Shown: positions 3,576 to 52,049 of the stretch, one piece after another
Layout: each line of letters opens with the position of its first letter
How positions within the stretch are numbered: position 1 is the first letter of the stretch
Assembly: GCA_017412045.1 (NCBI GenBank)
Contig: JAFQOX010000017.1
Span: 6,183 to 70,182, forward strand
Direction of reading: 5' to 3'
Source: Clostridia bacterium
Lineage (GTDB): Bacteria; Bacillota; Clostridia; Oscillospirales; CAG-272
DNA: 64,000 nucleotides
Program-made: the position numbers and the translations under genes
Notes under the pieces: model-generated
Seen by the model: only the letters and a program-made list of their open reading frames with translations
What the model was told of the DNA's origin: nothing
Database searches by the model: none

Positions 3576-4065
3576 AGAATTATCGGGAAAAAGCCGCTTG
3601 AAGGAAGCTCTGCAATTCAGCGATCAAGCGTACGTTGACAAGCATCCGCCGATGGAGACCGATGTCCGATATTCAAAAAAGCATTTGAAATATATGGCGC
3701 GCCTGACGAGGCAAACGGTATCTCCTATTGGAATTTACGCAAGAAAATACGTTGCGGCGCTGATGGCGGCAGTATTTCTTCTCGTTTGCGGTTCCGTCAC
3801 GATATCCGCAGTCAGAGCGCCTTTAACCGAATTTTTGGAAACGGTTTCTTCCTCCATTTTTAAGGATCCGAATCCCTCTCAATCCGATGATCCGCATACA
3901 GAGCACGATTTTTCCGTTTTGGCAACGGATGATCCCAACAAGCATTATTACCGCTGTGCAGATGAGCGTTGCAAAGAAAGATCGAAAGAGGAATTTCATA
4001 CTTACGTTCCCAATGAAGAAAAACGGCGGTTGGAGTGTTCGGTTTGCGGCAGAGTCGCCAATTGA
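3565..4065 (+). CDS. Putative anti-sigma factor: single-pass membrane protein with a Cys/His-rich C-terminal ectodomain
   Basis: Overlaps the sigma gene by 11 nt (translational coupling). Has one TM (YVAALMAAVFLLVCGSVTISAV). The C-terminus reads KHYYRCADERCKERSKEEFHTYVPNEEKRRLECSVCGRV. The call rests on position and topology only. Confidence 0.55.
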   Translation: MNDKELSGKSRLKEALQFSDQAYVDKHPPMETDVRYSKKHLKYMARLTRQTVSPIGIYARKYVAALMAAVFLLVCGSVTISAVRAPLTEFLETVSSSIFKDPNPSQSDDPHTEHDFSVLATDDPNKHYYRCADERCKERSKEEFHTYVPNEEKRRLECSVCGRVAN

Positions 4066-4087
4066 CGTTGAAAAAGGAGAAGATTTT

Positions 4088-5635: not shown

Positions 5636-5653
5636 TCCCGCTGAGAGGTGCTT

Positions 5654-6151
5654 ATGAAAAAACTTCTTATCTTGTTTTGTCTTTTTTCCATACTTCTTTG
5701 TTCGTGCGGCAAGGCGGACGAGGTTCTCGACCTCTCCGCCTTTCATGAAAATTTCCGCACGGAGCACGGTGCGCTTTTTGATAACGCAAGCTGTGAACAC
5801 GATCTGCGGTATCGGAATATGCCCGATCCGCTTTCGGATGACGACGTGACCGTTTATCATGAGGTTTCATGCTATTACGGCAATTGCGATTTTGAAACGC
5901 ATTTGGAACCGCATACGGTCTCTTATTCAAACATTCAAGTTCAAAACGGAAATCCCAAATTGAAAGAAAACGGCTGTCTGTATCACCGTTTGGTCGTTCA
6001 ATGCGAATATTGCCGCGTTTATCCGTATTTTTATATCTACGTTTTATGCCCGAACCAAGATACTGCTTGTAAGGGCGGAAAAGAGTGCCTTGCCGGTGCG
6101 GATTGGGAGGAGATCTTATGCGATACGCCTTACGTAATATCGTACGATTAA
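5654..6151 (+). CDS. Cys/His-rich small lipoprotein, copy 1
   Basis: MKKLLILFCLFSILLCSCG is a signal peptide plus lipobox. The mature part has >=12 Cys. It is a paralog of 9459..9977, with shared blocks CEH.L.Y, YH..SC..G.CD.E.H.EPH, KENG.LYH, C.EC, DW.EI...TPY.I. Confidence 0.7.
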   Translation: MKKLLILFCLFSILLCSCGKADEVLDLSAFHENFRTEHGALFDNASCEHDLRYRNMPDPLSDDDVTVYHEVSCYYGNCDFETHLEPHTVSYSNIQVQNGNPKLKENGCLYHRLVVQCEYCRVYPYFYIYVLCPNQDTACKGGKECLAGADWEEILCDTPYVISYD

Positions 6152-7593
6152 AAACGCGGAGCTTTCTGAGCTTTGCCATCGCGTTTGCCATTCTTTTTCT
6201 TTCCATGCTCGGCGTTTTGACCGTTCGGCTCTGCGAGGATAACCGAGAACGCTTTTTCGGTCCGCTCGACGGCGCCTATCACGTAACGGACAGTGCCTAT
6301 ACGCCCTTCCTTTCCTATGAGGCGGCGGAATATCTGGAGAAATATTCCGAAGCGATCACGAAGACCTCCGCCGTGATGGAGCGGACGGTTTCTTTTCCCG
6401 ATATGGAGTATATCGGGAAAAACGATTATGCGAGAGAAACCTTCGGCTGGGAAAGGGCTTACCTTCCCATTGGAACGGCACAAACGGCGTATCACGAGGG
6501 CTTTCTTCTTTGCGCGGTGACCTCTATGGATATTTTGAAGGAGGTCTACGGCGGTGATCTCGTCATGACGGAAGGCACGGCGATCAGTGAAAAAAACAAC
6601 GCCGACGGTGCAAACAAGATCGTGATTTCCTTCTCGGTCGCAGAGAAAAACGGATTGAAGCTTGGAGACCGCGTGCATCTCGATCCGTTTTCCGTTTTCA
6701 GTGAAGAAGAAGGCGCAGTTTCCGCTTACCTTGGATTCTCCGAAGAGTATTCGGCGTATGAATACATCGTCGGCGGTATTTATGAAAACCGTGAGAATAA
6801 CGGAGTTTCCGCTTCGCTTCCGAGTGAGATCAATGAAAATAAGGTTTATATCCCCATCTCGACTCTGACGGAAATGGCGAGAGATCCCTATCTTCTTGAT
6901 TTTGGCATTCGTAACGAAACGGGGCTTTCCGAGGAACCGCCGTCCGTGATTCCCGACAGACTCTATTTTCAGGTAAACAATACGGGAAGCGTAAAAATTT
7001 TAGAGAAAAAAATAAATGAGATCGGTTTTTCGGAGGCGCTTCTGCTTTCGCCCTATATATCCGATGCGGCTTCTTCACCATCCGCAAGACTTTCCGAGAT
7101 CGTTTCCTTGCTTCTTGTCGGTGTGATCGGAATGGGCTTTGCCGTTTTTGCGCTTACGGTGTTTTTTAATATGAAAGCAAGGAACAGAGAGCTTGCCGTG
7201 CTGACGGCACTCGGACAAAAGCGAAGCTGTGTCGTTCTCTCGTTTTTTGCTGAAATCTGTATTCTGACCTTTTTAGCCTTCCTGTGCGGTATTTTTCTTT
7301 TGATGGGAGCGGTCGTGCTTTTGGCTGTTCCGATCTCAAATTACTTGTATGAAGCTGAATTTTCGGCAAAGATTACGCATGAAAGCGCGGATCTCTTTTT
7401 GATCGGAAGCGGAGCGCAATCTGCCGCAACTGAAAAATTGGAGGATTTCGATTTTCTTTTTACTCGATATATCATACCGAGCACCGCGCTTTCCGCATTG
7501 GCGGCGGTCTTGATCCTGCTTCTTATTTTCGGTATCGTAGCTTTTTATGTCCGTAAGATCAACGCATTGTCGGGAGTGGGAGGAAAAGAATGA
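6118..7593 (+). CDS. ABC transporter permease, MacB/FtsX type, 4 TM with large extracytoplasmic domain, copy 1
   Basis: MRYALRNIVRLKTRSFLSFAIAFAILFL (typical FtsX-family N-terminus plus TM1), ~300 aa ectodomain, then TM2-loop-TM3-loop-TM4 (IVSLLLVGVIGMGFAVFALTVFFNMKARNRELAVLTALG...ALAAVLILLLIFGIVAFYV). Overlaps both the upstream and downstream genes. Confidence 0.85.
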   Translation: MRYALRNIVRLKTRSFLSFAIAFAILFLSMLGVLTVRLCEDNRERFFGPLDGAYHVTDSAYTPFLSYEAAEYLEKYSEAITKTSAVMERTVSFPDMEYIGKNDYARETFGWERAYLPIGTAQTAYHEGFLLCAVTSMDILKEVYGGDLVMTEGTAISEKNNADGANKIVISFSVAEKNGLKLGDRVHLDPFSVFSEEEGAVSAYLGFSEEYSAYEYIVGGIYENRENNGVSASLPSEINENKVYIPISTLTEMARDPYLLDFGIRNETGLSEEPPSVIPDRLYFQVNNTGSVKILEKKINEIGFSEALLLSPYISDAASSPSARLSEIVSLLLVGVIGMGFAVFALTVFFNMKARNRELAVLTALGQKRSCVVLSFFAEICILTFLAFLCGIFLLMGAVVLLAVPISNYLYEAEFSAKITHESADLFLIGSGAQSAATEKLEDFDFLFTRYIIPSTALSALAAVLILLLIFGIVAFYVRKINALSGVGGKE

Positions 7594-9350
7594 CGGTTTT
7601 AAAATTTGCTTTTCGGAATTTGATTCGCCTGCCTTGGCGAACTCTTTTATATTTTGCCATCGTATTTTTCATCGTCCTATCCGTCTCGGCTTCTCTTTTC
7701 GTATACGTTGCGTGTGAAAACGCGGGAGAGGCGCTGGATGAAAATTATGTGTTCGTTGCTTCGCTCGTTCCGAGGAAAAAGGATTCCCTCGCCCTTCGGG
7801 ATATCGGATACTGCGCAGACGGAACGGAAATTCTTTCTTTTCACGTGTCCATGTCGGAAAATAACGGCGTGATTCTCGGCGGCGCGTATATGCAAAGGCT
7901 TCCCGAAAAAACGGAGATCGCAAACGCGCCTTCGGCATGGGTGGACGAAATCGGCGCAAGGCTCGTTGCCGTGGAAAATCTGCATCTCGTCCCCTCCTTC
8001 TTTTCGGGAGAATGTACGTTGCAAAGCGGCACGGGTATTACCGAAAAAGGCTATGCGGGCGAACGTGCCGAGCTTGTGATCCCGTGGCGGCTTGCAGAGA
8101 AATACGGTGTTTCCGTCGGTGATACGCTCATCAGACGGTATTACCGCGACGACTACGAAACGTATATTTATTTGGAAAGCGAGATCGTCGGTATTTATAA
8201 AACGAGCGCGATTTCGCCCGATGAAAACGATGATCCCGTATATATTCCTCTTGCCGTTGCGGAATTGGATTATGCCACGCTCATTTCGGAGCGGCAAACG
8301 CCAACCTCCGAGCTGATCATCGAACGCGCGGATTTCGTTTTGAAGGATAGAAACGCATTTGAACCGCTCGTTTTGCAGGCTGGGGCAAACGGACTGGATT
8401 TCCGTAGAGCCGATCTCGTATTCAATAACGGCGCTTACGATACGCTTTCGGGCGAGCTTCGGAGCATTACGTCGATTGCTATGCTCGTTCTGTTCGGTGT
8501 TTTGGCTGTCGGTGTAAGCGTTCTCGTCTTTTTTACGCTCTATCTCTGCCATGCAAGAGACCGCGAAAAAACGTTGCTTTCTGCACTCGGGATGAGCCGC
8601 GGAGGCATCCGCGCCATGCTCACCCTTGAATTGCTCACAGTTGCTGTTTGTGCTTTTCTGATCGGAGGTGTGGCAGGTTATTTTACGGCAGATGCCGTTT
8701 GCGGCTACGTGAACGATTCGGTATTGACCGATGAAGAAATTTCAAGCAAAATCGAAGGCACGGGGCGCGGAAGTCAAACGGATATCACGGCACCCCTTGA
8801 GCAAAACATCAAAATAGAGATTTCCGTGCGCTCCGTTCACGTTTGTGCATCCGGACTCACGGTCAACGAAACGAAAATGCCGAGAGAGGACGAAATCGGT
8901 GTCAGCAGGCATTTGTATTATCGCATCGGCAACGATCTGACGGATATGATGCAGGGAAAGGCTCGCGTGCCGACCTCGGTCGTGGGCATTACGGATATGA
9001 GCGCCGTCAAAACGACCGTTTGGGACGAGTCCTTTTCCGGTATCCGTGTTTTTGTCAGCGAGGATTTTAATATGGGAGCAATGGAGAGTAACCGTATTTT
9101 TCTGACACCTTACGATCAAAACGGGTACGTATCGCTCAAAAAGGATTCTTCTTCGCTCGGCGATGCAAGCTTGCCGAAAAATACGTCTGTGCGAATCGTG
9201 GGAGTCTATGAAGAAAACGAATATTGCTCGGGAAACGATCTGCTCGTCTGCATGGAGGATTATCACAGGCTTTATTCCGAATTTTCCATCACGGACGAAA
9301 GCTTTTTCTTTGAGCGCATCGGCACGGTTTATACAAAAAATGAGCCGTAA
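7590..9350 (+). CDS. FtsX-family permease-like protein, atypical: TM1, ectodomain, TM2, TM3, then ~215 aa hydrophilic C-terminal domain and no TM4, copy 1
   Basis: MTVLKFAFRNLIRLPWRTLLYFAIVFFIVLSV..., FtsX core ITSIAMLVLFGVLAVGVSVLVFFTLYLCHARDREKTLLSALGMSRGGIRAMLTLELLTVAVCAFLIGGVAGYF. No further hydrophobic span is present up to the C-terminus (...VGVYEENEYCSGNDLLVCMEDYHRLYSEF...). ATGA overlap with the upstream gene. Confidence 0.75.
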   Translation: MTVLKFAFRNLIRLPWRTLLYFAIVFFIVLSVSASLFVYVACENAGEALDENYVFVASLVPRKKDSLALRDIGYCADGTEILSFHVSMSENNGVILGGAYMQRLPEKTEIANAPSAWVDEIGARLVAVENLHLVPSFFSGECTLQSGTGITEKGYAGERAELVIPWRLAEKYGVSVGDTLIRRYYRDDYETYIYLESEIVGIYKTSAISPDENDDPVYIPLAVAELDYATLISERQTPTSELIIERADFVLKDRNAFEPLVLQAGANGLDFRRADLVFNNGAYDTLSGELRSITSIAMLVLFGVLAVGVSVLVFFTLYLCHARDREKTLLSALGMSRGGIRAMLTLELLTVAVCAFLIGGVAGYFTADAVCGYVNDSVLTDEEISSKIEGTGRGSQTDITAPLEQNIKIEISVRSVHVCASGLTVNETKMPREDEIGVSRHLYYRIGNDLTDMMQGKARVPTSVVGITDMSAVKTTVWDESFSGIRVFVSEDFNMGAMESNRIFLTPYDQNGYVSLKKDSSSLGDASLPKNTSVRIVGVYEENEYCSGNDLLVCMEDYHRLYSEFSITDESFFFERIGTVYTKNEP

Positions 9351-9382
9351 GACGAAAGCTTCGACAAAGTTTCAAAAATCTC

Positions 9383-9411
9383 TTGACAAGAGCGCCCTCG
9401 GCACTTATAAT
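9383..9411 (+). promoter_or_regulatory. Consensus sigma-A type promoter (TTGACA-17 nt-TATAAT) between the two cassette copies
   Basis: tctTTGACAagagcgccctcggcactTATAATataac, read directly from the only sizeable intergenic gap of the locus (9351-9458). Confidence 0.6.
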
Positions 9412-9458
9412 ATAACTGTACTATTGATGATAATACAGTTGGGCGAAAAGGAGATTTT

Positions 9459-9977
9459 ATGAAAAGATATATTCTGCTTTGCTTGCTTGCGTTTTGCGTT
9501 TTGCTGTTTTCCTCTTGTCACGCGGTTTCCGAAACGCATTTGGATCCATCCCATTACGGTGAGGATTTCAGAATCAAAAACGAAATGCTTTTTCCGAACA
9601 CGGAATGTGAGCATTCCTTGGTTTATACGCCGACGGACGGTACGGAGGCGGATATGTATCACAAGACCTCCTGCAAATGGGGCGGATGTGATTACGAGGC
9701 GCACGGAGAACCGCACGTATTTCTGTTTAAGCAGGGGTATTTGCCGAGCGCGAGAGCGCATTATAAGGAAAACGGATATCTGTATCATTCCTTCCGGATG
9801 GCTTGCGAGGAATGTCACGGAGCGGTCACGCTCCACGTTCTTTGCCGTACGCAGAATGCCGAATGCGGCGCGGGCGAAGGGGCGATCCACGCGCCTGCCG
9901 TATGCTTTGCAGGCTGTGATTGGCAAGAAATCTTTCGGGGAACGCCGTATCGGATCACGGTGCGCTCCGATGCGTGA
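9459..9977 (+). CDS. Cys/His-rich small lipoprotein, copy 2
   Basis: MKRYILLCLLAFCVLLFSSC is a signal peptide plus lipobox. Paralog of 5654..6151. AAGGAG RBS is present. Confidence 0.7.
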   Translation: MKRYILLCLLAFCVLLFSSCHAVSETHLDPSHYGEDFRIKNEMLFPNTECEHSLVYTPTDGTEADMYHKTSCKWGGCDYEAHGEPHVFLFKQGYLPSARAHYKENGYLYHSFRMACEECHGAVTLHVLCRTQNAECGAGEGAIHAPAVCFAGCDWQEIFRGTPYRITVRSDA

Positions 9978-9994
9978 CGGAAGGCGGTGGCGCT

Positions 9995-11467
9995 TTGTAT
10001 TACGCGATTCGAAATATAGGCAGACAGAAGGCAAAAAGCCTTCTTGTTCTTCTGATGGCGTTTGCCGTCCTGTTTCTTTCTCAATTCGGATTTTTTATGC
10101 GCTGTATATCCGAACACGTGAGAGAACGCTTTTGGGGACCGCTTGACGGCTCCGTTCACGTGACGGATGACGATCTTGAGGCGTATCTTACCTACGATGC
10201 CGCCGTTACGCTTGCGAACGATGCGGAGGTGATCACCCGTCTCTCTGCCGTGAAAACCTATACGGGCTTTTTCCGTAACGCCGTTTACGTGGGCTACGGT
10301 AGCTATCAGCGTCCGCAATATGCGGGAGAAACACCGACCGCGGACAGAAAAAGCAATTATCTTACGGGTGTTTGCGTGAAAGCCGTGACCTCCATGGAGA
10401 TTCTTGAGGAGACGTACGGCGGTGTTCTGGCGGTGGTGCAAGGCTCGGCGATCACCGACGAAGACACGGATCTGCGGAAAAACAAGATCGTTGTCTCGGA
10501 AAAATTCGCTGAAGCCAACAACCTGCGGATTGGAGATTCTCTCGTATTGGATACCTTGTCCCTTTATCAGACAGAGGCGGAAGCGGTACGCTTCGGTATG
10601 ACGGATCTGTATGACAAAAATAAATTTACGTATGCATATACCGTGGGCGGTATCTACCGTTTGCATACGGACAATGCGGCGGCAGCTTCTGTTCCGTGGG
10701 AATTGTATGACAATATCGTTTACGTGCCAATGACGACGGCGGAGAATATCTCCGTTTCCGAAGGCGTACGGACGATGTTTGAGAGCGAGGATGTTTTCGC
10801 CTTGAGGACCAATCCCGTTTTGGTTCCCGATGCGCTGTATTTTCATCTTTCGGATATCGGCTGTGCGCAAGCGCTTGCCGAAGAAATGAACGGAATCGGT
10901 TTTTCCGAGCGAATCAGGCTGACGCCGTACGTTTCCGATCTTTCGTCCTCTCCTTCTGCGCGGCTTTCGGAGGTCGTATCGGGGACGCTTGTCGGTGTGA
11001 TCGCGGCGGGTTTTGCCGTATTGCTGTTGACCGCGCTTTTGAATATGAGGGCAAGACGGCGCGAATTTGCCGCCCTGATCGCCATGGGTAAAAAAAGAGA
11101 GTCCGTTGCTTTGTCCTACGCTCTTGAGCTTGGGCTTCTGATCGTCTCGGCGTTTCTTTTGTCCGCCGTAGCGATGACGGTCATCGCCTATCTGTGCGCG
11201 GCACCACTCTCCCGGTATTTGTACGCCGCAGAGGAAGCGGCTTTGTTTCACACCGAAAGCGCGGATCACTATCTTTTTGGCGATTGGAGCGATCCGCTTG
11301 CCGTGCAGGTGCAAGCGTCCATTCCCGCGCTTTTCCGTGAATATATGATGCCGAACATCGTATTTACGGGAGCGGTGACGGCAGTTTTGATGCTGTTGCT
11401 TTGCGGTATGATTTCAGTCTATGTAAAAAACGTACACCCAATGTACGATGCGGGGGGGAAGGAGTAA
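9995..11467 (+). CDS. ABC transporter permease, MacB/FtsX type, 4 TM, copy 2
   Basis: Paralog of 6118..7593 (WGPLDGSVHVTDDD / FGPLDGAYHVTDSA; SPSARLSEVVS / SPSARLSEIVS; NMRARRREFAALIAMG). A TTG start at ~9995 (LYYAIRNIGRQKAK) preceded by GGAAGG aligns with the copy 1 N-terminus. The track ORF begins at 9920 inside the upstream gene. Confidence 0.8.
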   Translation: MYYAIRNIGRQKAKSLLVLLMAFAVLFLSQFGFFMRCISEHVRERFWGPLDGSVHVTDDDLEAYLTYDAAVTLANDAEVITRLSAVKTYTGFFRNAVYVGYGSYQRPQYAGETPTADRKSNYLTGVCVKAVTSMEILEETYGGVLAVVQGSAITDEDTDLRKNKIVVSEKFAEANNLRIGDSLVLDTLSLYQTEAEAVRFGMTDLYDKNKFTYAYTVGGIYRLHTDNAAAASVPWELYDNIVYVPMTTAENISVSEGVRTMFESEDVFALRTNPVLVPDALYFHLSDIGCAQALAEEMNGIGFSERIRLTPYVSDLSSSPSARLSEVVSGTLVGVIAAGFAVLLLTALLNMRARRREFAALIAMGKKRESVALSYALELGLLIVSAFLLSAVAMTVIAYLCAAPLSRYLYAAEEAALFHTESADHYLFGDWSDPLAVQVQASIPALFREYMMPNIVFTGAVTAVLMLLLCGMISVYVKNVHPMYDAGGKE

Positions 11468-11468
11468 T

Positions 11469-13256
11469 ATGACGGTCATCAGAATGGCTTTTCGGAATCT
11501 CGTCCGTTTTCCGAAAAGAACGGTTTTATACGGACTTACGGTTTTTCTTCTCGTCTTTTCCATCACCGTCTCTCTTTTCGTATACCGTGCGTGCGGTCTG
11601 GCGGAAAGCACGCTGGAGGAGCATTATGTTTTCGTCGCTTCTCTGGTCAAAAGAACACAAGGACGCAATATTCCGCTTTCTGAGATCTTCAAATGCACGC
11701 CTTATAAAAAATTGTTGGCATTCAACGTCACCGTTTCGGAGGGAGAGGGCGTATTTCCCGCAGGCTCTGCGCTGACGGAGCTTCCTTCTGCCGATAGGGA
11801 CGAAAATCCGACGGACGTTTGGCTTGAAGGACCGGGCTGTCCCATATACGGCGTAGAAAATCTGGGGCTCGTTTATCCGTTTTTCTCGGGAGAATGTCAT
11901 ATCACGCAGGGAACGGCGCTGACGGAAAAGGGATACTGCGGCGAAGCCGACGAGACGGTGATCCCCTGGTGGATGGCGGAGCGCTACGGACTCAAGGTCG
12001 GCGATACCGTGAACCGCCGTTATCTCCGACAGACGGGAGAATTTGCCTATATTTATATCCCGACGGAGATCGTGGGTATTTATGCGACGTCCTCTCCCTC
12101 GCCGAATATTGAAAATTATCCTGCGTATATTCCGCTTGCCCTGGCGGAGACGGACTACGGCAAAATCTTGCCGAGCGCAACGGATGCCGGGGATATCCGC
12201 GTGGAAAGAGCCGATTTCGTGCTGAAAAACAGGGAGGATTTTGCGGATTTCGTCGCGTTCGCGCAAGCGCAGGGCTTGGATTTCACGTCTGCCAATCTTG
12301 TTTTCAATAACAGCACCTATGACGTGCTGTGCGCCGAGCTTCAAAATATCGGTCATATTGCGCTCCTCGTATTTGCCGCCGCTACTCTCGCAGGTGTCGG
12401 CACGCTGATTTTTCTGACGGTCTATCTTTGCAGAGCGAGAGAAAAAGAAACGGCGATTCTTCGCGCTCTGGGAATGAAAAAAACGAAGATCTACGCTTTG
12501 CGTGCGTTGGAATTTGCTTTGCTCATCGCCGTTTTTTCTTCGGTAGGATTTTTGGGAGGTCGTTTTGCGGCAGGGGCGGTTTGCGATTTCGTCAACGGTA
12601 CGGTTCTGGCGCGTGCCTCCGCATCCGAGGAAATACAAGATCTGAATGCATCGGAAAGTTTTGTCATTACCATGCCGCTCGAAAAAGATTTCAACATGAA
12701 AATATCCCTTTCTCCGTCTCAAATTGCCGATGCCGCCGTTGCGGTGCATTCGTTGCCGAAGCTTTCCGTAAACGAGCTTGGGATCTCGCGCCATCCATTT
12801 TACTTGTTTATGACGGACTCGGAGAATCTGACCGCTACGCCCGAAGCGATGAAGGCGTTTGAAACGAGGGAAAAGCTCCGGATGGATATCGTCGGCGTAA
12901 CGGATCTTTCCGTTTTTGAACTGACGGAAACGAAGGAATTTCCCGAAAATTTCGTCAGGATCTACGTGAATGAAACTTCTCCGTATGCCAATGAAGAGAG
13001 CCTGTTTTTGTCGGCGGACGATTTCGGAGATTACGTTTCGGTTCTTCTGTATGAAGCGGGGATCTCGCCGGACGGAGGCAGATTGGGACAAGTGAAAAGA
13101 TATTATATTGCCGGTACTTATCAGGAAAATGAATATTGCTCGGGCGATGACATCCTTGTTTCCATGGAGGACTATCATAAAATATATTCCGATATATCCG
13201 TCACGGATCACATCAATCATTTTCAGCGCATCGGCGCAGTTTGGGAAAAGGAGTGA
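11469..13256 (+). CDS. FtsX-family permease-like protein, atypical (3 TM plus C-terminal ectodomain), copy 2
   Basis: MTVIRMAFRNLVRFPKRTVLYGLTVFLLVF... Paralog of 7590..9350 with the same architecture and the conserved C-terminal block GTYQENEYCSGDDILVSMEDYHKIYS. The start follows the upstream stop by 1 nt. Confidence 0.75.
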   Translation: MTVIRMAFRNLVRFPKRTVLYGLTVFLLVFSITVSLFVYRACGLAESTLEEHYVFVASLVKRTQGRNIPLSEIFKCTPYKKLLAFNVTVSEGEGVFPAGSALTELPSADRDENPTDVWLEGPGCPIYGVENLGLVYPFFSGECHITQGTALTEKGYCGEADETVIPWWMAERYGLKVGDTVNRRYLRQTGEFAYIYIPTEIVGIYATSSPSPNIENYPAYIPLALAETDYGKILPSATDAGDIRVERADFVLKNREDFADFVAFAQAQGLDFTSANLVFNNSTYDVLCAELQNIGHIALLVFAAATLAGVGTLIFLTVYLCRAREKETAILRALGMKKTKIYALRALEFALLIAVFSSVGFLGGRFAAGAVCDFVNGTVLARASASEEIQDLNASESFVITMPLEKDFNMKISLSPSQIADAAVAVHSLPKLSVNELGISRHPFYLFMTDSENLTATPEAMKAFETREKLRMDIVGVTDLSVFELTETKEFPENFVRIYVNETSPYANEESLFLSADDFGDYVSVLLYEAGISPDGGRLGQVKRYYIAGTYQENEYCSGDDILVSMEDYHKIYSDISVTDHINHFQRIGAVWEKE

Positions 13257-13260
13257 AGAT

Positions 13261-13944
13261 ATGGAAACTTTGCATTTGAAAAACGTATCCTACGATTATA
13301 CGACCAAAGCGGGAAAGGTCCACGCTTTGAGGGATGCGACCGCCGTCTTTGAAGCGGGCGCGGTTTACGCGATCGTCGGACGCTCGGGAAGCGGAAAGTC
13401 CACCTTGATGTCCCTCATGGCAGGGCTGGACATCCCCAAAGACGGTGATATTTTTTATCACGGCGAAAATTTGAGAAATATGGATCGCGATAAGTTCCGC
13501 CGCGAGCATATCGGCATGATCTTCCAGAGCTATTACTTGCTCCCCCAGCTGACCGCCGTGGAAAACGTGGAGCTTTCGCTCGAGCTTGCAAAATACAAGG
13601 GAAACAAGCGTGCCCGCGCCGAGGAAATGCTCTCGCTCGTCGGCATCAAAAGGGAGCAATTCAAAAAGCGCAGTACGCAGTTTTCGGGCGGCGAACAGCA
13701 AAGGATCGCCATCGCCCGCGCCATTGCGGCAGATCCCGAGATCATTCTCGCGGATGAACCGACGGGAAACTTGGATAACGATAACAGCATGAACATCGTC
13801 GGGATTCTCGTCGATCTGGCGCATAAATACGATAAATGCGTGATTGTCATTACCCACGCCGCCGAGATTGCGGAAAGAGCAGACGTCGCGCTGAAGATGG
13901 ACGACGGCGTGCTGAAATGTGATTTCGGGAAAGAAATGGTGTAA
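13261..13944 (+). CDS. ABC transporter ATP-binding protein, MacB/LolD-like (227 aa)
   Basis: Walker A GRSGSGKST, Q-loop, signature FSGGEQQRIAIARA, Walker B ILADEPTGNLD, H-loop VIVITHA. It is the only ATPase in the locus. Confidence 0.9.
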   Translation: METLHLKNVSYDYTTKAGKVHALRDATAVFEAGAVYAIVGRSGSGKSTLMSLMAGLDIPKDGDIFYHGENLRNMDRDKFRREHIGMIFQSYYLLPQLTAVENVELSLELAKYKGNKRARAEEMLSLVGIKREQFKKRSTQFSGGEQQRIAIARAIAADPEIILADEPTGNLDNDNSMNIVGILVDLAHKYDKCVIVITHAAEIAERADVALKMDDGVLKCDFGKEMV

Positions 13945-14234: not shown

Positions 14235-15242
14235 TTATTCCCACTCAATCGTGCCGGTAGGCTTGGGAGTGAGATCGTAGAGAACGCGGTTGATGCCTGC
14301 GACCTCGGTGACGATTCTGTTGGTGATTTTGTGAAGAACGGCGTAGGGAATTTCTTCGATGGTTGCGGTCATTGCGTCTTTGGTATTGACGGCGCGGATG
14401 ATGGCGGGCCAGCCTTCGTAGCGGCTTTCATCCTTTACGCCGACGCTCTTGATGTCGGGAATGGCGATGAAATACTGCCATACGGTTTTAGCAAGACCGG
14501 AATTGTCGAATTCTTCGCGGAGGATCGCGTCTGCTTCGCGGAGTGCGTGGAGTCTGTCGCGAGTGATGGCGCCGAGGCAACGAACACCGAGACCGGGGCC
14601 GGGGAAGGGTTGACGGTCAACCATGGAAGAGGGGAGTCCGAGGGTTCTGCCGACAACACGGACTTCGTCTTTGAAAAGGAACTTCAAGGGCTCAACGAGC
14701 TGGAATTTTTCAGCGAGGTCGTCGGGAAGACCGCCGACGTTATGATGGGATTTGACTGCTTTTTTGCCTTCGCCCTGCTTGACGCTTTCCAGAATGTCGG
14801 GATAGATGGTACCCTGCGCGAGGAAGGACACGCCGTCGAGCTTGCGCGCTTCGTCAGCGAATACGTTGATGAATTCTTCGCCGATGATTTTACGCTTGCG
14901 TTCGGGATCCGCAACGTTTGCGAGAAGGTTCAGAAAACGGTCTGTAGCATCGATATAGATGAGATTGGCATCGAGCTGATTGCGGAAAAGTTCGATCACC
15001 GCTTCGCTCTCGTTTTTGCGCATAAGTCCGTGGTTGACGTGTACGCAAATGAGCTGTTTGCCGATTGCCTTCAGAAGAAGTGCGGCAACTACGGAAGAGT
15101 CAACACCGCCAGAGAGTGCGAGCAGGACCTTTTTGTCGCCGACCTGGGCGCGGACCTCTGCGATCTTTTCTGCGATGAAAGCCTCTGCGAGTTCAGGGGT
15201 GGAAATACGAGTCATGGAATCCGGTCTGAGATTGGTATTCAT
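14235..15242 (-). CDS. guaA: GMP synthase ATP-pyrophosphatase (synthetase) domain protein, with no glutamine amidotransferase domain
   Basis: KKVLLALSGGVDSSVVAALL (PP-loop), HHNVGGLP, PFPGPGLGVRCLG and the canonical C-terminus KPTGTIEWE. It is 335 aa, starting where the synthetase domain of fused GuaA begins. Confidence 0.85.
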   Translation of the reverse strand: MNTNLRPDSMTRISTPELAEAFIAEKIAEVRAQVGDKKVLLALSGGVDSSVVAALLLKAIGKQLICVHVNHGLMRKNESEAVIELFRNQLDANLIYIDATDRFLNLLANVADPERKRKIIGEEFINVFADEARKLDGVSFLAQGTIYPDILESVKQGEGKKAVKSHHNVGGLPDDLAEKFQLVEPLKFLFKDEVRVVGRTLGLPSSMVDRQPFPGPGLGVRCLGAITRDRLHALREADAILREEFDNSGLAKTVWQYFIAIPDIKSVGVKDESRYEGWPAIIRAVNTKDAMTATIEEIPYAVLHKITNRIVTEVAGINRVLYDLTPKPTGTIEWE

Positions 15243-15581
15243 ATAGCATTCCTCCTAAAAATAAAAATCAATCATCTTTTTCGTTTTGCGGATTTTTGAG
15301 AAAATCAAACGTGATTCTTCGAAATTGTTGAGTCCAAAAGCGATTTAATGAAAATATTATACAGCGAAAATGTGTGATTTGTCAATAGGATTTTCAAAAA
15401 AACAGAAAAAAATCTCTAAAAATAAACATGAAATATTCATCAAAAAACAATGAATCCTTTTCACGCGTTTTGTTGACAAGTAAAAAGGAAAATGCTATAA
15501 TAATAAAGTATCGAATTGTAATATCATCGGTAAAATATAATATGATCGAAACGGATATAGGACAGAAAGGAACAATGGATT

Positions 15582-17321
15582 ATGACGAAACGAATTCCCA
15601 AAATATCGCTCCGTGCGATGTCGCTTGCCAAGCAATGCGGAATCAGCAGTAAAGATTTGTATTTAATTACGCCGACAGGCGCTGACGGCAGAATCACCGA
15701 AGAGGACGTTTTGCTCGCAGCCAAGGCGAAAATGGATATGGCTTCCGTGGCAGCGCAAAAGCCCGCAGCGGAAAAAGCACCCGTTGCGGAAGAAGTACCT
15801 GTAACGGAAAAAGCGCCCGTTGCAGAAAAAGCACCCGTTGCGGAAGAAGTACCTGTAACGGAAAAAGCGCCCGTTGCAGAAAAAGCACCCGTTGCGGAAG
15901 AAGCGCCCGTGGCGAAAGAAGCGCCCGTGGCAGAAAAAGCACCCGTAGCGGGAGAAGCGCCCGTTGCGGAAGAAGCACCCGTTGCAGAAAAAGCGCCCGT
16001 TGCGGAAGAAGCGCCCGTTGCGGAAGAAGCGCCCGTTGCAGAAAACGCACCCGTAACGGAAGAAGCGCCCGTAGCGGAAGAAGCGTCCGCAGCAGAAGAA
16101 GCGCCCGTAACGGAAGAAGCACCCGTTGCGGAAGAAGTACCCGTTGCAGAAGAAGCGCCCGTAACGGAAGAAGCACCCGTTGCGGAAGAAGTACCCGTTG
16201 CAGAAGAAGCGCCCGTTGCAGAAGAAGCGCCCGTTGCGGAAGAAGTGCCCGTAACGAAAGAAGCGCCCGTTGCGGAAGAAGCGCCCGTTACGGAAGAAGC
16301 ACCCGTAACGGAAGAAGCACCCGTTGCGGAAGAAGTACCCGTTGCAGAAGAAGCACCCGTTGCAGAAGAAGCGCCCGTAGCGGAAGAAGCACCCGTAGCG
16401 GAAGAAGCACCTGTGGCAGAAGAAACTCCCGTAGCGGAAGAAGCCCCCGTGACGGAAGAAGCACCTGTGACAGAAGAAACTCCCGTGGAAGCGCCGGACA
16501 GCGTTGCCATTGAAAAAATCGAGACGGAAAAACAGGAACAAACCGCAATCATTGCCAAACCCGTGATGAACGAAGAAACGATCGGCGATCAGAGCGCAGA
16601 AGGAGAGATCCCGAAGCATGAGACGGTTCATTCCTTTGATTCGGAGGCATACCTTCATACGGACGTCATCATTCCGAGAACGGAAACCGCGCCGGACGGA
16701 ACGCCGATGACGGTCAGTATGTCCTTCGATGCTTCTTCTATCGTGAGATTACATACGATGATCAAGGAGAACGGCGAAGCGATGGGAATTCCTCACGTTA
16801 CGATCAACGATATGATTCTCTTTGCGGCGGCAAAGCTTCTGAAGAAAAACAAAGCGCTGAACGCGCATTTTCTCGGAGACAAGATCCGTTATTTCGACGG
16901 CGTGCATCTCGGATTCGCCGTAGATACCGATCACGGTATGGAGCTTCCCGTGGTATTCGATGCGGATAAGCTTTCCCTCTACGCGCTCACGCAGGTTACG
17001 GATGCTTTGATCAGAGGCGCAAGAGCGGGCAAAATCGCTTCCGGCAAAACGAAGCCCTGCGCTTCCTTCACGGTATCCAATCTCGGCACGCTCGGCGTGG
17101 AATATTTCATGCCGACGCTGAAGGCACCGCAGACCGGAATCCTCGGCGTTTGCGCGTTGCAGAAGAGAGTGAAGGAGGTTGGCGGAAAGGACGTATTCTA
17201 CTCCTGCATCCCGCTCTCCCTGACCTTCGATCCCCGCGCGCTGGATACCACGAGCGCCGCGAAATTCCTGCGCGATCTTTGCGTATCGCTGGAAAATTTT
17301 GAATTGTTGCTGTTGAAATAA
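15582..17321 (+). CDS. 2-oxoacid dehydrogenase E2 (dihydrolipoamide acyltransferase)-like protein with no lipoyl domain, a long Pro/Ala/Glu repeat linker and a degenerate catalytic motif
   Basis: N-terminal E3/E1-binding-like segment ([29 protein letters not shown]), ~240 aa of [AV]PV[AT]E[EK] repeats, and a C-terminal catalytic-domain pattern ([39 protein letters not shown]). Confidence 0.75.
15760..16490 (+). repeat. About 40 tandem copies of an 18-bp coding repeat (GAAGAAGCNCCCGTTGCG-like, hexapeptide APVAEE) with 54-bp higher-order units
   Basis: Read directly. For example, the 54-mer gaagaagtacctgtaacggaaaaagcgcccgttgcagaaaaagcacccgttgcg occurs twice back to back near 15788-15895. Confidence 0.9.
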
Positions 17322-19415: not shown

Positions 19416-20669
19416 ATGAAAAAAATAAGTTTGACTTTCATCAGCTTTCTGCTTCTGTGCGCGGTCCTGCTTCATGCTTCGGGTTGCTCGGCGAATATCC
19501 ATGCCGCCGATCTGATGGACGGCGTTACGCCTCGCAAATGGGAAACCGGAACGGATCCCGGTGAGAAAAGCGCCGAGGTGACCGATTTTGCGATCCGTCT
19601 TTTCAGGGCGGTAAACGAGGACGGAAAGAATACGTTGATTTCACCTTTGTCGGTTCTTTGCGCATTGGCGATGACGGCAAACGGTGCGCAGGGAGAAACG
19701 AGAGCGCAGATGGAATCCGTTCTCGGTATGCGTACGGAGGATCTGAATGCGTATCTTTGCGCGTATGTGAACGCCTTGCCGCAGGGGGATCGCTACAAGC
19801 TTCATCTCGCAAACTCCATTTGGTTTTCCGATGAAGACGGTTTTGCCGTCAACCGCGATTTTTTGCAGACGAACGCGGATTACTACGGAGCAGATATTTA
19901 TCAAGCACCGTTTGATAACAGAACGCTCCGCGACGTCAATCGCTGGGTAAGGAACGAAACCGACGGCATGATCCCCGAGGTTCTCGATCGGATCCCTTCC
20001 GAGGCGGTGATGTATCTCGTGAACGCGCTCGCGTTTGAAGCGGAATGGAAAAAGATCTATGAGAAAAAGCAAATCAAGGACGGCACGTTCACAAAAGAGG
20101 ACGGAACGGAGCTGACAGCCAAGATGATGTACGCCACCGAGCACGTCAAATATCTCAAAGATAAAAACGCGACGGGCTTTTTCAAATATTATAACGGGGA
20201 AAAATACGCTTTTGTTGCGCTTCTTCCCGACGAGGGCGTTTCGCTGTCCGATTACGTGAACAGCCTTGACGGGGCGGCTCTGCACACGCTTTTGTCGGAA
20301 GCGGAAACGGCTTCGGTCAGCACGGCGATTCCGAAATTTGAATCCGAATACAGCGCGGAGCTTTCCGAAATTCTGCAATCCATGGGAATGACGCTCGCCT
20401 TTGACGAAAATAACGCGGATTTTTCGGGGATCGGCACCGTAGCGAGCGGGAATCTCTTTATGAGCAGGGTTTTGCACAAGACTTGTATCCGTGTCGATGA
20501 AAAGGGCACGAAGGCGGGCGCCGTAACGGTGATCGAAATGAGCAAAAATTCTGCCGATGCGGGAGGAATCAAGCAGGTTTACCTGGACAGACCGTTCGTC
20601 TATATGCTCGTTGACTGCGAAAACAATATTCCCTTCTTCATCGGTACGGTGACGGACGTGAATGCATAA
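19416..20669 (+). CDS. Serpin-family protease inhibitor, predicted lipoprotein
   Basis: Signal peptide plus lipobox LLHASGC. Serpin blocks NTLISPLSVLCALAMTANGAQGET, VNALAFEAEWK, and hinge/RCL DEKGTKAGAVTVIEMSKNSADAGG followed by DRPFVYML. Confidence 0.85.
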   Translation: MKKISLTFISFLLLCAVLLHASGCSANIHAADLMDGVTPRKWETGTDPGEKSAEVTDFAIRLFRAVNEDGKNTLISPLSVLCALAMTANGAQGETRAQMESVLGMRTEDLNAYLCAYVNALPQGDRYKLHLANSIWFSDEDGFAVNRDFLQTNADYYGADIYQAPFDNRTLRDVNRWVRNETDGMIPEVLDRIPSEAVMYLVNALAFEAEWKKIYEKKQIKDGTFTKEDGTELTAKMMYATEHVKYLKDKNATGFFKYYNGEKYAFVALLPDEGVSLSDYVNSLDGAALHTLLSEAETASVSTAIPKFESEYSAELSEILQSMGMTLAFDENNADFSGIGTVASGNLFMSRVLHKTCIRVDEKGTKAGAVTVIEMSKNSADAGGIKQVYLDRPFVYMLVDCENNIPFFIGTVTDVNA

Positions 20670-20991: not shown

Positions 20992-21291
20992 ATGGATAAG
21001 CAATGCTGTTCTCACAAAACGAAAGCCCGTACGGACGACGAATATAAAAAGCTGATTCACCGTCTGAACCGTATCGAGGGACAGATCCGCGGAATCCGCG
21101 GTATGGTGGAAAACGATGCGTACTGTACGGATATTCTGATCCAGGTCAGCGCGGTCAACGCCGCTCTGAACGCGTTCAATAAGGAATTGTTGGCAAATCA
21201 TATCCGCACCTGCGTGACGGACGATATCCGGAACGGGAAGGACGAGGTCGTGGACGAATTGGTCAACACCCTGCAAAAATTGATGAAATGA
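20992..21291 (+). CDS. csoR: CsoR/RcnR-family metal-sensing transcriptional repressor
   Basis: LIHRLNRIEGQIRGIRGMVENDAYCTDILIQVSAVNAALNAF is the classic DUF156 pattern with the Cys/His ligand set. It lies directly upstream of copA. Confidence 0.9.
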   Translation: MDKQCCSHKTKARTDDEYKKLIHRLNRIEGQIRGIRGMVENDAYCTDILIQVSAVNAALNAFNKELLANHIRTCVTDDIRNGKDEVVDELVNTLQKLMK

Positions 21292-21308
21292 AAGGCACGG
21301 TATGACAA

Positions 21309-23807
21309 ATGGAACGGTATAACGTGACGGGTATGAGCTGCGCGGCTTGCAGCGCCCGTGTGGAAAAGGCGGTCTCTGCCGTGGAAGGCGTGAAAAGCTG
21401 CTCCGTCAATCTGCTGACGAACTCCATGGCGGTGGAAGGGACGGCGGCGAAGGAAGCCATTGTCGCGGCGGTGGAAGCCGCAGGCTACGGCGCATCGCCA
21501 AAAACGGAATCCGCAGAACAAGCGCCCGCGTCGAAAAGAGAGGAATTGCGCGACGTGCAAACACCTCTGATGAAAAAGCGATTGATTGCGTCGCTCGGCT
21601 TTCTGGCGCTTCTGATGTATATTTCGATGGGACACGTGATGTGGGGCTTTCCCCTGCCCGCGGTTCTCGCGGAAAATCCGCTTGCCATCGGACTTCTGGA
21701 GCTTTTGCTCTGCGCGATCGTGATGGTGATCAATCAGAAATTCTTTATCAACGGCACAAAGGGCGTTTTGCACGGCGCGCCGAATATGGATACGCTCGTG
21801 GCGTTGGGCTCGGGCGCATCGTTCGTATACAGCGTGTACGTCGTTTTTGCGATGACGGCGGCGCAGATGGACGGAGATCCTTCGGCTGTCATGCACGGCT
21901 TGCATGATCTGTATTTTGAATCGGCGGCAATGATCCTGACGCTGATCACCGTCGGCAAAATGCTGGAGGCGAGAGCCAAGGGCAAAACGACGGATGCACT
22001 CGCAGGTCTGATGGCGCTTGCGCCCAAGACGGCAACGGTCTTGCGCGACGGAGAAGAAACGGTCGTTGCGATCGAAGCCGTAAAAAAGGGTGATATTTTC
22101 ATCGTTCGCCCCGGCGAGCATATTCCCGTGGACGGCATCGTCGTCGAGGGCGGAAGCGCCGTGAACGAATCGGCGCTGACGGGAGAAAGCATTCCCGTCG
22201 ATAAGGCGGTCGGTGATTCCGTTTCTTCGGGAACGACCAACGAATCGGGATTTCTCAAATGCGAGGCGACAAGAGTCGGTGAAGATACCGCGCTGGCACA
22301 GATCGTCCGCATGGTCAGCGACGCGGCGGCAACGAAAGCGCCGATCGCAAAGATCGCAGATAAGGTTTCGGGTGTTTTCGTTCCCGTCGTCATCTCCATT
22401 GCGGCGATCGCCTTCGCGATTTGGATGATCGCGGGAGGATCCGTCGGTTTTGCGCTTTCGATGGGCATTTCCGTGCTCGTTATCAGCTGTCCCTGCGCGC
22501 TCGGTCTGGCAACGCCCGTGGCGATCATGGTCGGAACGGGAAAGGGCGCGAAAAACGGCATTCTTTTCAAAACGGCGACGGCGCTGGAGGAAACGGGCAA
22601 GGTGAAAACCGTCGTTCTCGATAAAACGGGAACGGTGACGAGCGGCGCGCCCAAGGTCGTTTCCGTGCTTCCCGCGTCGGGCGTTTCGGAGGAGACGCTT
22701 CTTTCTCTTGCCTATACGCTGGAGAAAAACAGCGAGCACCCGCTGGCAAGAGCGATCCGCGAACGCGCGGAGGATCTCGGCATGAAGGCAGGGGCGGTTT
22801 CGGATTTTACCGTATTTCCGGGAAACGGTCTTTCCGCAACATACGGAAGCGATACGCTTTTCGGCGGAAATCTCGCCTTCATTGCATCCCGAGCGTCTGT
22901 GACGGAGGATATGCAAGCGCAGGCAAGCGCGCTTGCCGATGAAGGAAAAACGCCGCTTTTCTTTGCAAAAAACGGCAGTATGCTCGGCATCGTCGCCGTT
23001 GCGGACGTGATCCGTGAGGACAGCCCCGCGGCGATCCGCGAACTGCGAGAGATGGGCATCCGCGTCGTTATGCTGACGGGGGACAACGAGCGCACTGCCG
23101 CCGCGATCGCAAGAGAGGTCGGCGCGGACGAGGTCATCGCGGGCGTACTCCCCGACGGCAAGGAAGAGGTGATCCGCAAGCTTTGCGAGCAGGGCAAGGT
23201 CGCCATGGTCGGCGACGGTATCAACGATGCCCCCGCTCTGACGCGCGCGGATATCGGCATCGCCATCGGCGCGGGCACGGATATCGCCATTGATGCGGCA
23301 GACGTCGTGCTGATGAACAGCAGACTTTCCGACGTTCCCGCCGCGATCCGTCTCAGCAGAGCGACGCTGAGAAATATTCATCAGAATCTTTTCTGGGCGT
23401 TCTTCTATAACGCGGTCGGCATTCCGCTGGCGGCGGGCGCGTGGTATCCGCTGTGGCAAATCAAGCTCAGCCCCATGTTCGGCGCGGCGGCGATGAGTCT
23501 TTCCAGCTTCTGTGTGGTCAGCAACGCGCTGCGGCTCAATCTCACGAAGATCCGCAGTACGAAACATAAAAACAAACAACAAACGGAGGAAACCAAAATG
23601 GAAAAAACGATGAAAATCAAAGGTATGATGTGCAAGCATTGCGAAGCGAGAGTTAAAAACTGTCTCGAAGCGTTGCCCGAAGTCAGCGAAGCCGTCGTCA
23701 GCCACAAAAAGGGCACGGCAAAGCTCACGCTCACCGCGGAAATCGCAAACGAAACGCTCAAAAAGACCGTTGAGGATCAGGGCTATCCCGTCATTGACAT
23801 CAAATAA
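21309..23807 (+). CDS. copA: Copper-translocating P1B-type ATPase with an N-terminal and an additional C-terminal heavy-metal-associated domain
   Basis: N-terminal GMSCAACSARVE, TGES, CPCALGLATP, DKTGTVT, GDGINDAP. The last 69 aa form a second HMA domain (KIKGMMCKHCEARV). Confidence 0.92.
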   Translation: MERYNVTGMSCAACSARVEKAVSAVEGVKSCSVNLLTNSMAVEGTAAKEAIVAAVEAAGYGASPKTESAEQAPASKREELRDVQTPLMKKRLIASLGFLALLMYISMGHVMWGFPLPAVLAENPLAIGLLELLLCAIVMVINQKFFINGTKGVLHGAPNMDTLVALGSGASFVYSVYVVFAMTAAQMDGDPSAVMHGLHDLYFESAAMILTLITVGKMLEARAKGKTTDALAGLMALAPKTATVLRDGEETVVAIEAVKKGDIFIVRPGEHIPVDGIVVEGGSAVNESALTGESIPVDKAVGDSVSSGTTNESGFLKCEATRVGEDTALAQIVRMVSDAAATKAPIAKIADKVSGVFVPVVISIAAIAFAIWMIAGGSVGFALSMGISVLVISCPCALGLATPVAIMVGTGKGAKNGILFKTATALEETGKVKTVVLDKTGTVTSGAPKVVSVLPASGVSEETLLSLAYTLEKNSEHPLARAIRERAEDLGMKAGAVSDFTVFPGNGLSATYGSDTLFGGNLAFIASRASVTEDMQAQASALADEGKTPLFFAKNGSMLGIVAVADVIREDSPAAIRELREMGIRVVMLTGDNERTAAAIAREVGADEVIAGVLPDGKEEVIRKLCEQGKVAMVGDGINDAPALTRADIGIAIGAGTDIAIDAADVVLMNSRLSDVPAAIRLSRATLRNIHQNLFWAFFYNAVGIPLAAGAWYPLWQIKLSPMFGAAAMSLSSFCVVSNALRLNLTKIRSTKHKNKQQTEETKMEKTMKIKGMMCKHCEARVKNCLEALPEVSEAVVSHKKGTAKLTLTAEIANETLKKTVEDQGYPVIDIK

Positions 23808-51815: not shown

Positions 51816-51889
51816 GCGGGTGTAGTTCAATGGTAGAACTCCAGCCTTCCAAGCTGGTCGCGTGGGTTCGATTCCCATCATCCGCTCCA
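51816..51889 (+). tRNA. tRNA-Gly (anticodon UCC), CCA encoded
   Basis: Acceptor GCGGGTG/CATCCGC, anticodon arm CCAGC-CTTCCAA-GCTGG, T arm GTGGGTTCGATTCCCAT. Confidence 0.9.
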
Positions 51890-51966
51890 GTGCCTTTAGC
51901 TCAGCAGGATAGAGCAACTGCCTTCTAAGCAGTAGGTCGAGGGTTCGAATCCCCCAAGGCACGCCA
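51890..51966 (+). tRNA. tRNA-Arg (anticodon UCU), CCA encoded
   Basis: Acceptor GTGCCTT/AAGGCAC, anticodon arm ACTGC-CTTCTAA-GCAGT, T loop GGTTCGAATCC. Confidence 0.9.
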
Positions 51967-51971
51967 GTTAT

Positions 51972-52049
51972 GGTGGATATGGCTCAGTTGGTTAGAGCGC
52001 CAGGTTGTGGCCCTGGAGGCCGTCGGTTCGAATCCGATTATCCACCCCA
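51972..52049 (+). tRNA. tRNA-His (anticodon GUG) with encoded G-1, CCA encoded
   Basis: G-1 plus GTGGATA/TATCCAC-C, anticodon arm CCAGG-TTGTGGC-CCTGG, T loop GGTTCGAATCC. Confidence 0.9.

Follow-up and report, generated by a model that had tools for sequence, protein, structure and literature searches.

A conserved, apparently inactive E2 homologue as the probable last survivor of a dehydrogenase operon in uncultured Clostridia

The 64-kb stretch of Clostridia contig JAFQOX010000017.1 analysed here (the window, at its full length) carries at 15582..17321 an open reading frame (ORF) for a homologue of E2, the acyltransferase component of 2-oxoacid dehydrogenases, in which the lipoyl domain is missing and the catalytic DHR motif reads DPR. 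The locus raises the question of what maintains an E2 core once the elements of acyl transfer are gone. We refer to this pseudo-E2 as E2*. The original prediction, made from the DNA alone, took it for an orphan and for an inactive, scaffold-like or repurposed E2 homologue; the latter description is supported, the inactivity being deduced from sequence, and E2* is very probably a dead, conserved E2 and the last survivor of an operon. As to its function, we favour a non-catalytic, self-assembling E2-core scaffold with long polyanionic tethers, to which we assign a probability of roughly 0.45–0.5.

Domains of E2* and the loss of catalytic elements

E2* begins directly with a subunit-binding domain (PSBD), as had been proposed from a subunit-binding-like segment at its start, and an AlphaFold2 (AF2) model of residues 1–60 (pLDDT 79.8) is a small helical module whose 18 best PDB fold matches in Foldseek are all PSBDs. 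The R11 and G36-R37-I38 signature of the domain is kept, and there is a 3-residue insertion that is found in none of the orthologues. The C-terminal part is a CAT-fold E2 core, with a PF00198 score of 144 bits as compared with 223 bits for the canonical sister E2, and alignment to PF02817 and PF00198 sets the boundaries of the two domains (Table 1). An AF2 model of residues 329–579 built on an alignment of the clade described below has a pLDDT of 85.6 and a pTM of 0.82, with a disordered segment of inner linker in its first 25 residues, and Foldseek retrieves the E2 cores 6zzn, 3l60, 1b5s, 9njt and 1scz (E about 1e-20 to 1e-21, TM about 0.8), such that the matches cover both cubic and icosahedral E2 cores. 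By this prediction the E2 fold is retained, in agreement with the original assignment of a CAT-fold domain.

There is no Pfam match to a lipoyl domain (PF00364) in E2*, a tblastn search with a sister-clade lipoyl query finds nothing across the window, and the position of the start codon is consistent with those of the orthologues. A lipoyl domain concealed upstream or in another frame was considered and is ruled out by tblastn; the 340 nt upstream, correctly described at the outset as AT-rich and non-coding, contain two divergent perfect consensus promoters instead.

At the active site the His is replaced by Pro and the Gly by Thr, as first reported; throughout the broader CAT/E2 superfamily, this His serves as general base. 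The 'fDHRvvDG' and 'yDHRliDG' segments of solved E2s align in HMMER without gaps to 'fDPRalDT', and neither HMM nor structure alignment places a His elsewhere at the catalytic position. Both changes are conserved throughout the pseudo-E2 clade. A sequencing or assembly error at DPR is ruled out, because this type of motif is present in all 55 lipoyl-less clusters described below and a protein identical to E2* is present on 2 contigs.

Further E2 features are altered as well. The RKxIAxxM stretch of canonical E2s, which we take to be helix H1 of E2 structures, is represented in E2*, directly after the clade-specific motif of Table 1, by a shorter segment that is non-helical in the AF2 model, and alignment and column-wise comparison show that the E2-invariant motifs GLxVP and INPPQ are lost or relaxed in the dead clade; all three presumably line the substrate channels. 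The C-terminal ENFxLLLxK tail is kept, and up to its C-terminus E2* aligns without gaps with the cubic Mycobacterium tuberculosis core 6zzn and with the 1b5s core. We take this tail to be the hydrophobic 'knob' that joins trimers into 24- or 60-mer cores.

E2* therefore has two of the features by which E2 proteins are recognized, the PSBD and the CAT-fold core, and lacks the lipoyl domain, the catalytic His and Gly, an association with E1 and E3, and scores reaching the NCBIfam equivalog cut-offs: all nine NCBIfam E2 models are matched far under their cut-offs, the best being NF008814 at 101 bits against 722. E2* is thus a pseudo-E2.

A dead clade and the dismantling of its operon

A core-domain search over 5.8 billion proteins, from which the 120 best matches were kept as 90%-identity clusters (P0001–P0120), separates two groups; the genomes involved are all metagenome assemblies. 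Fifty-five of the 120 (P0001–P0055) form a lipoyl-less group with 56–88% identity to the E2* core. Those with a complete N-terminus all start straight at the PSBD, and all 55 read F(D/E)(P, rarely T or S)RA..(T/S), so that the orthologues retain DPR (or DTR/DSR) and none of the clade has a lipoyl domain, either fused or upstream. Among clade members, P0052 bears the name '2-oxo acid dehydrogenase subunit E2', and JGI records that of 'pyruvate dehydrogenase E2 component'. The canonical group, nearly all of P0056–P0120, has 52–67% core identity and keeps FDHRALDG, with DHR retained in 64/64 matches classed as canonical. PF00364, PF02817 and PF00198 are present in every full-length canonical member, and the canonical records without PF00364 are short or truncated (e.g. 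P0057, P0068, P0075, P0087). P0085 has a divergent C-terminus and was left unclassified. The canonical sister E2s (P0058, and that of locus L009) have core domains 52–63% identical to that of E2* and resemble it in PSBD, ENFxLLLxK tail and fold, whereas they differ in having an N-terminal lipoyl domain, FDHRALDG, RKxIAxxM, a short linker, and adjacent E3 and active-looking E1 genes.

In a neighbour-joining tree of 198 core domains, 61 of the 62 non-His sequences constitute one pure clade, in which DTR forms (the L008 type) are basal and an E1-less subclade that includes the window group is nested. Since the clade is single and pure, the lipoyl domain, His and Gly were lost together, once, and the loss then inherited; the event is placed at the root of an Oscillospiraceae-like clade of uncultured Clostridia from gut or rumen. 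Full-text literature searches yielded no description of a lipoyl-less, His-less bacterial E2, although such an absence is no proof of novelty, and no paper on the fused-E1 Clostridial operon described next.

Genomic contexts were determined from the encoding contigs, tblastn searches and ORF maps. A scan of species-representative genomes, with the best 80 of 433 matches kept, gave 75 canonical loci and five GTDB genomes with a pseudo-E2, and there are 11 pseudo-E2 loci in total. The canonical loci encode a lipoyl domain in 74/75 cases and E3 in 70/75, and in most of them a fused E1αβ (~820 aa) lies ~1.4 kb downstream of E2. This gap is absent in a few (such as L063 and L073), and at L009 it is occupied by E3, with Pyr_redox_2 and Pyr_redox_dim domains and a CxxxxC motif. 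A DeoR-family regulator (HTH_DeoR + DeoRC; L009:8308-9195) is located immediately upstream of the E2-E3-E1αβ genes at L009, hinting that the ancestral complex was under a sugar- or phosphosugar-linked signal.

By tblastn, covering as much as 10 kb to either side, the 11 pseudo-E2 loci contain neither an E3 gene nor a lipoyl domain, and there is no further E2 copy within about 10 kb of them or in the window. Searches of the 64 kb with E1 and E3 queries from related operons (tblastn) also found neither, bearing out the earlier remark that E1 and E3 genes are not nearby. Between the canonical arrangement and that of the window, several intermediates are seen. At L008 a DTR-type pseudo-E2 is directly followed by an E1 with almost canonical motifs, and at L002, L003 and L007 a DPR-type pseudo-E2 is followed ~20 nt on by a fused E1 without the β-subunit 'HSQ' His and with changes in GGSMH and YR..GHS.SD. 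This His presumably serves the lipoyl acceptor, and its loss fits an E1 unable to use one. The same three E1s (L002:11285-13741, L003:11219-13669 and L007:5003-7453) keep the thiamine diphosphate (ThDP) motif GDG…NN and HRxHG. Decarboxylation or carboligation by these E1s, on a dead E2 scaffold and with E3 absent, may still be possible. In the L006 E1 the α motifs are gone altogether.

The closest of the E1-containing loci are L004, L005 and L086, with 74–76% core identity to E2* and the gene order guaA'-E2*-E1*-pepF, where E1* is a pseudo-E1 (L004:10752-13040, L005:10064-12508 and L086:2947-5382). Its ORF is intact (about 760–810 aa), and GDG…NN, HRxHG, GGSMH and YR..GHS.SD are all lost, with deletions of 4 and 16 residues. 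E1* is itself apparently a pseudoenzyme, such that two seemingly dead subunits of one complex are retained together. The Pfam E1_dh score falls from 163 bits at L009 to 120 at L002 and 38 at L005. The arrangement guaA'-E2*-pepF is seen in the window and at L084 and L085, with a gap of just 41–44 nt between E2* and pepF, from which we conclude that the E1 gene was excised. The order of events suggested by these loci is loss of E3 first, then of the ThDP-binding and catalytic motifs of E1, and finally of the E1 gene in the window sub-lineage. The designation as an orphan thus holds for the present state of the gene; historically it does not, as E2* is the remnant of an E2-E3-E1αβ operon.

Constraint on the dead core and its possible roles

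Nei-Gojobori estimates for the E2* core among three E1-less orthologues give proportions of nonsynonymous (pN) and synonymous (pS) differences of 0.087–0.12 and 0.51–0.58, and a ratio ω of 0.09–0.12, within the 0.03–0.16 obtained by the same calculation for live sister E2 cores. The dead core is about as constrained as a working enzyme and is under strong purifying selection. The pseudo-E1 is relaxed yet not neutral (ω 0.11–0.26, versus 0.01–0.02 for a canonical E1 pair). That E2* is a functionless relic, a decaying gene still free of stop codons, is hardly credible: the operon is clearly decaying (E3 lost, E1 dead, E1 deleted) and the PSBD evolves faster than the core, but at least 55 clusters, reaching as low as about 56% identity, have intact ORFs, the excess of pS over pN persists after the loss of E1, some positions are newly conserved, and the gene has a perfect consensus promoter. 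Because catalysis is lost and constraint is kept, a non-enzymatic role is most likely, and probably a structural one.

Column-wise comparison of 50 dead with 62 live sequences finds 64 columns that both groups conserve, about 30 that are relaxed among the dead sequences (among them the RKxIAxxM, GLxVP and INPPQ positions), 6 switched and about 19 newly conserved. The switched and newly conserved positions, one of them an almost invariant His (residue 359) shortly before the core, could reflect neo-functionalization. A pocket remodelled around the new conserved residues, those of the Y-x-H-T-D motif among them, would then bind CoA, acyl-CoA or another metabolite, and the protein would serve as a sensor or, using another base, as a transferase; ω is as low as in live enzymes. 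We regard this as unlikely. S499, which we equate with the catalytic Ser558 of Azotobacter vinelandii E2p by its offset from the His and not by alignment, is mostly S or T across the clade, but its equivalent is L or N in some members, and RKxIAxxM, GLxVP and INPPQ are lost or relaxed. Moreover, the title of PDB entry 1dpb treats the E2 His as catalytic together with Ser558 and Asn614, yet this is the residue that has been replaced.

The PSBD and core are joined by a 304-residue linker with a net charge of -69, within which the [AV]PV[AT]E[EK] repeat reported earlier forms an array of ~233 residues, encoded by 698 nt. It is the longest among 46 linkers measured; those of the dead clade have medians of 117 aa and -26 net charge, compared with 49 aa and -6 for their live relatives. 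The repeat period varies among orthologues, with a pentapeptide (EEPVA) in P0030, a hexapeptide in E2* and irregular forms in P0001 and P0008, from which we conclude that it is the P/E/A/V composition that is selected rather than the sequence or the period of the repeat. A disordered polyanionic tether is accordingly favoured over a left-handed β-helix, and the long linker of E2* arose by recent 18-nt tandem duplication. The tether is P/E/V/A-rich and of low complexity, like the Ala-Pro-rich linkers of E2s, and is similar in composition to the PEVK segment of titin, an entropic spring. In the inner linker a hydrophobic motif (TAIVAAPV in the pseudo-E2 consensus) is missing from the seven canonical sister sequences aligned alongside.

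A β-helix reading of the hexapeptide array was considered and rejected, since the scores are sub-cut-off (12–20 bits to the hexapeptide-repeat acyltransferases LpxA, LpxD and NeuD, with NCBIfam cut-offs of 160–231) and the period is not conserved among orthologues. For the same reasons, with scores under the cut-offs where relevant, matches in residues 64–300 to Pfam Cementoin, LED_rpt and DUF963, to PDB 8zxl, and to NCBIfam LpxA, LpxD, NeuD and IgA-binding BAC are taken as compositional. Two minus-strand ORFs over the repeat (15524-16558 and 15663-16658) are low-complexity artefacts.

The scaffold that we favour would have the following derivation. Its ancestor would be the E2 of a Clostridial E2-E3-E1αβ dehydrogenase operon of 2-oxoacid or acetoin type, and E2* itself has lost every catalytic element (lipoyl domain, His, Gly, RKxIAxxM and E2-invariant motifs). 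The CAT-fold domain is trimeric in all solved E2s, and that of E2* would still trimerize, with the C-terminal tail assembling trimers into a cubic or dodecahedral core; each subunit would project a ~300-residue acidic tether outwards, with the PSBD as a docking module at its tip. In relatives representing three successive stages (L008; L002/L003/L007; L004/L005/L086) the platform would dock the fused E1, at first possibly as a decarboxylase and later as a dead shell, whereas in the window lineage a bare particle bearing a polyanionic brush would remain, its gene served by a consensus promoter and its PSBD perhaps drifting. A more specific form of this proposal is that a PDH-type (pyruvate dehydrogenase) core has been exapted as a 24- or 60-mer cage displaying hundreds of polyanionic tethers, serving in a new cellular role as a non-enzymatic nanoparticle or condensate organizer; we consider this tentative and somewhat doubtful, and equally so the additional suggestion that in the relatives the cage is decorated by an equally dead E1 shell.

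Several points weigh against the scaffold proposal. Assembly and inactivity of E2* are both deduced from its sequence, partners may be encoded elsewhere, as the search covered the 64-kb window, and a bare polyanionic particle would bring no obvious benefit. Values of dS are near saturation (about 0.9–1.1 and above) so that ω is approximate, although the contrast of pN and pS is still unambiguous. In E1-less lineages the PSBD has a pN of 0.18–0.32, evolving 2–3x faster than the core, and carries the insertion in the window; its possible decay weakens the idea of docking. Finally, the 698-nt repeat length comes from metagenome assemblies and the copy number may be imprecise.

At L086 (~1850-1960) a run of N marks an assembly gap inside the orthologous acidic repeat; such repeats are evidently hard to assemble, and linker lengths from metagenome-assembled genomes (MAGs) need caution. 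Lengths are likewise uncertain for the truncated database entries P0003, P0005 and P0014–P0016.

The kept PSBD, predicted to fold, and the kept C-terminal tail would also suit an accessory subunit resembling E3BP, which joins an active complex encoded elsewhere or recruits E1/E3 to it. In mammalian and fungal PDH, E3BP keeps a lipoyl domain, co-assembles with active E2 and recruits E3. It is the nearest analogue of E2*, the mammalian protein being just such a dead E2 paralogue, with a subunit-binding domain and a pseudo-catalytic core (in which the catalytic His is missing) that are kept for architecture (10.1126/sciadv.adn4582), and human protein X (PDB 6h60) is matched by E2* at E = 9e-14. 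E2*, however, lacks a lipoyl domain and its operon is without E3, an active E2 and finally E1, and its origin, bacterial and within Clostridia, is independent of that of E3BP. The E1s of its nearest relatives have lost their ThDP motifs, such that the whole system appears dead rather than a single subunit, and the window has no E1, other E2, E3 or lipoyl gene that E2* could serve. A weaker point is that 0/75 canonical loci (among the best 80 of 433 matches, all in MAGs) share an assembly with any of the five pseudo-E2 GTDB genomes. An accessory role of this kind is therefore improbable in our view.

A precedent for an E2 function that outlives catalysis is provided by the Firmicute enzyme PdhC of Bacillus. 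PMC4113751, with reference to Gao 2002 and Walter & Aronson 1999, describes, for the E2 of B. subtilis and B. thuringiensis, sporulation and promoter-binding roles whose independence of enzymatic activity is proposed and which in B. subtilis also involve E1β. Regulatory moonlighting of this type (in sporulation, in regulating genes, or in control of the nucleoid or of replication) as the sole selected role of E2* would agree with the lower ω of the β half than the α half of pseudo-E1 between L005 and L086 (0.11 versus 0.25), although the other two pairs have no such difference. We think it quite unlikely. Bacillus PdhC is fully active with lipoyl domains, no sequence feature ties its moonlighting to the dead clade, and the analogy bridges distant Firmicutes. 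DNA binding is itself unlikely in view of the linker net charge of about -69, a Pfam search of E2* reveals no DNA-binding domain, and no regulatory neighbourhood is conserved across the loci.

Among the fold matches is the trimeric core of Corynebacterium AceF (PDB 6zzi-6zzm), an actinobacterial E2 core of non-textbook assembly or architecture. AceF is active and lipoylated, and is trimeric owing to a C-terminal insertion. E2* differs in having no C-terminal insertion in its gap-free alignment to the cubic 6zzn.

Flanking features and significance

The features of E2* and of the surrounding region are listed in Table 1. The two promoters are arranged back to back in a 340-nt intergenic region of 26% GC, that of E2* lying ~80 nt upstream of the start codon. 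By eye, an over-extended N-terminus of P0028 (…DVWLTSKTENAILN…) resembles the upstream frame of the window across the promoter (…RVLLTSKKENAIII…), and this protein-level likeness hints that the promoter DNA is conserved. A scan detects no terminator-like site between E2* and pepF, so that the two could be co-transcribed. At the gathering threshold, Rfam has no riboswitch or leader-RNA match to the AT-rich DNA upstream of E2*; the sole Rfam matches in the window are a cluster of three tRNAs far from E2*. PADLOC matches neither E2* nor pseudo-E1 as anti-phage defence.

Table 1. Features of the E2* gene and its surroundings (window coordinates).
Feature	Coordinates	Strand	Details
Permease array	3887-13944	+	Four tandem MacB/FtsX-type genes (about 490-600 aa each), two small ORFs between
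guaA-like gene	14235-15242	-	335 aa; NAD_synthase/PP-loop + GMP_synt_C, no glutaminase domain
Second σ70 promoter, facing guaA'	15385-15356	-	Perfect 12/12; consensus scan
σ70-type promoter of E2*	15473..15501	+	TTGACA, 17-nt spacer with TG, TATAAT; 12/12 matches, extended -10; putative function
Likely ribosome-binding site AAAGGAAC	15566..15573	+	8 nt ahead of ATG; read from sequence, putative
Pseudo-E2 (E2*) ORF	15582..17321	+	579 aa, ATG start; stop codon included
PSBD	15621..15713	+	aa 14-44; Pfam E3_binding PF02817, 27.1 bits (cut-off 23.7)
Tandem 18-nt repeat x 38.8	15768..16465	+	(A/T)E(E/K)(A/V)PV hexapeptides; Tandem Repeats Finder, 82% matches
Hydrophobic motif TAIIAKPV	16542..16565	+	aa 321-328, inner linker; alignments, clade consensus TAIVAAPV
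Clade-specific motif Y(R/L)HTDVIIP	16650..16676	+	Start of core domain; alignment, conservation analysis
CAT-fold E2 core (pseudo-catalytic) domain	16707..17315	+	aa 376-578; Pfam 2-oxoacid_dh PF00198, 144 bits
Degenerate motif FDPRALDTT	17226..17252	+	In place of FDHRALDGA; H->P aa 551, G->T aa 556
C-terminal tail ENFELLLLK	17292..17318	+	Nearly invariant in dead and live clades; consensus LENFxLLLxK
Serpin gene	19416-20669	+	PF00079, 299 bits
CsoR-type repressor and P-type ATPase genes	20992-23807	+	Trns_repr_metal, then HMA-domain ATPase (CopA-like)
Three-tRNA cluster	51816-52046	+	Rfam

The flanking genes originally named as guaA-like and pepF indeed encode a stand-alone GMP-synthase ATP-pyrophosphatase subunit and oligoendopeptidase F. 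The former is a split GMP synthase subunit comprising the ATP-pyrophosphatase and dimerization part, and it is syntenic with E2* at L004, L005, L085 and L086. A serpin gene downstream of pepF, present at L084 too, encodes a hydrophobic signal-like N-terminal segment ending in …LLHASGCSA. The CsoR- and CopA-like genes form a copper-resistance pair that is syntenic at L005, L084 and L086, and on the other side the permease array, closed by one ABC ATPase gene, resembles duplicated modules for efflux or peptide export.

Known dead E2 paralogues, the eukaryotic E3BPs, stay in an active complex, whereas in this case catalysis seems to have gone stepwise from an entire bacterial E2-E3-E1 system. It represents a trajectory rather than a single oddity, as all of the intermediate stages survive in living lineages. 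That the core is constrained after its partner genes have gone from the locus suggests that an E2 core has some selectable property besides acyl transfer, such as assembly, scaffolding, charge display or binding. The clade could offer a natural test of what that property is, and it may have implications for the reported non-enzymatic roles of E2 in Bacillus. If the cage proposal is true, E2* would parallel in nature the E2 nanoparticles that have been engineered, and as a lead for protein engineering it may provide a naturally optimized, self-assembling and non-catalytic cage with long, flexible arms for display. For the organisms themselves, current E2 and PDH annotations would wrongly credit these genomes with PDH-type activity in metabolic reconstructions.

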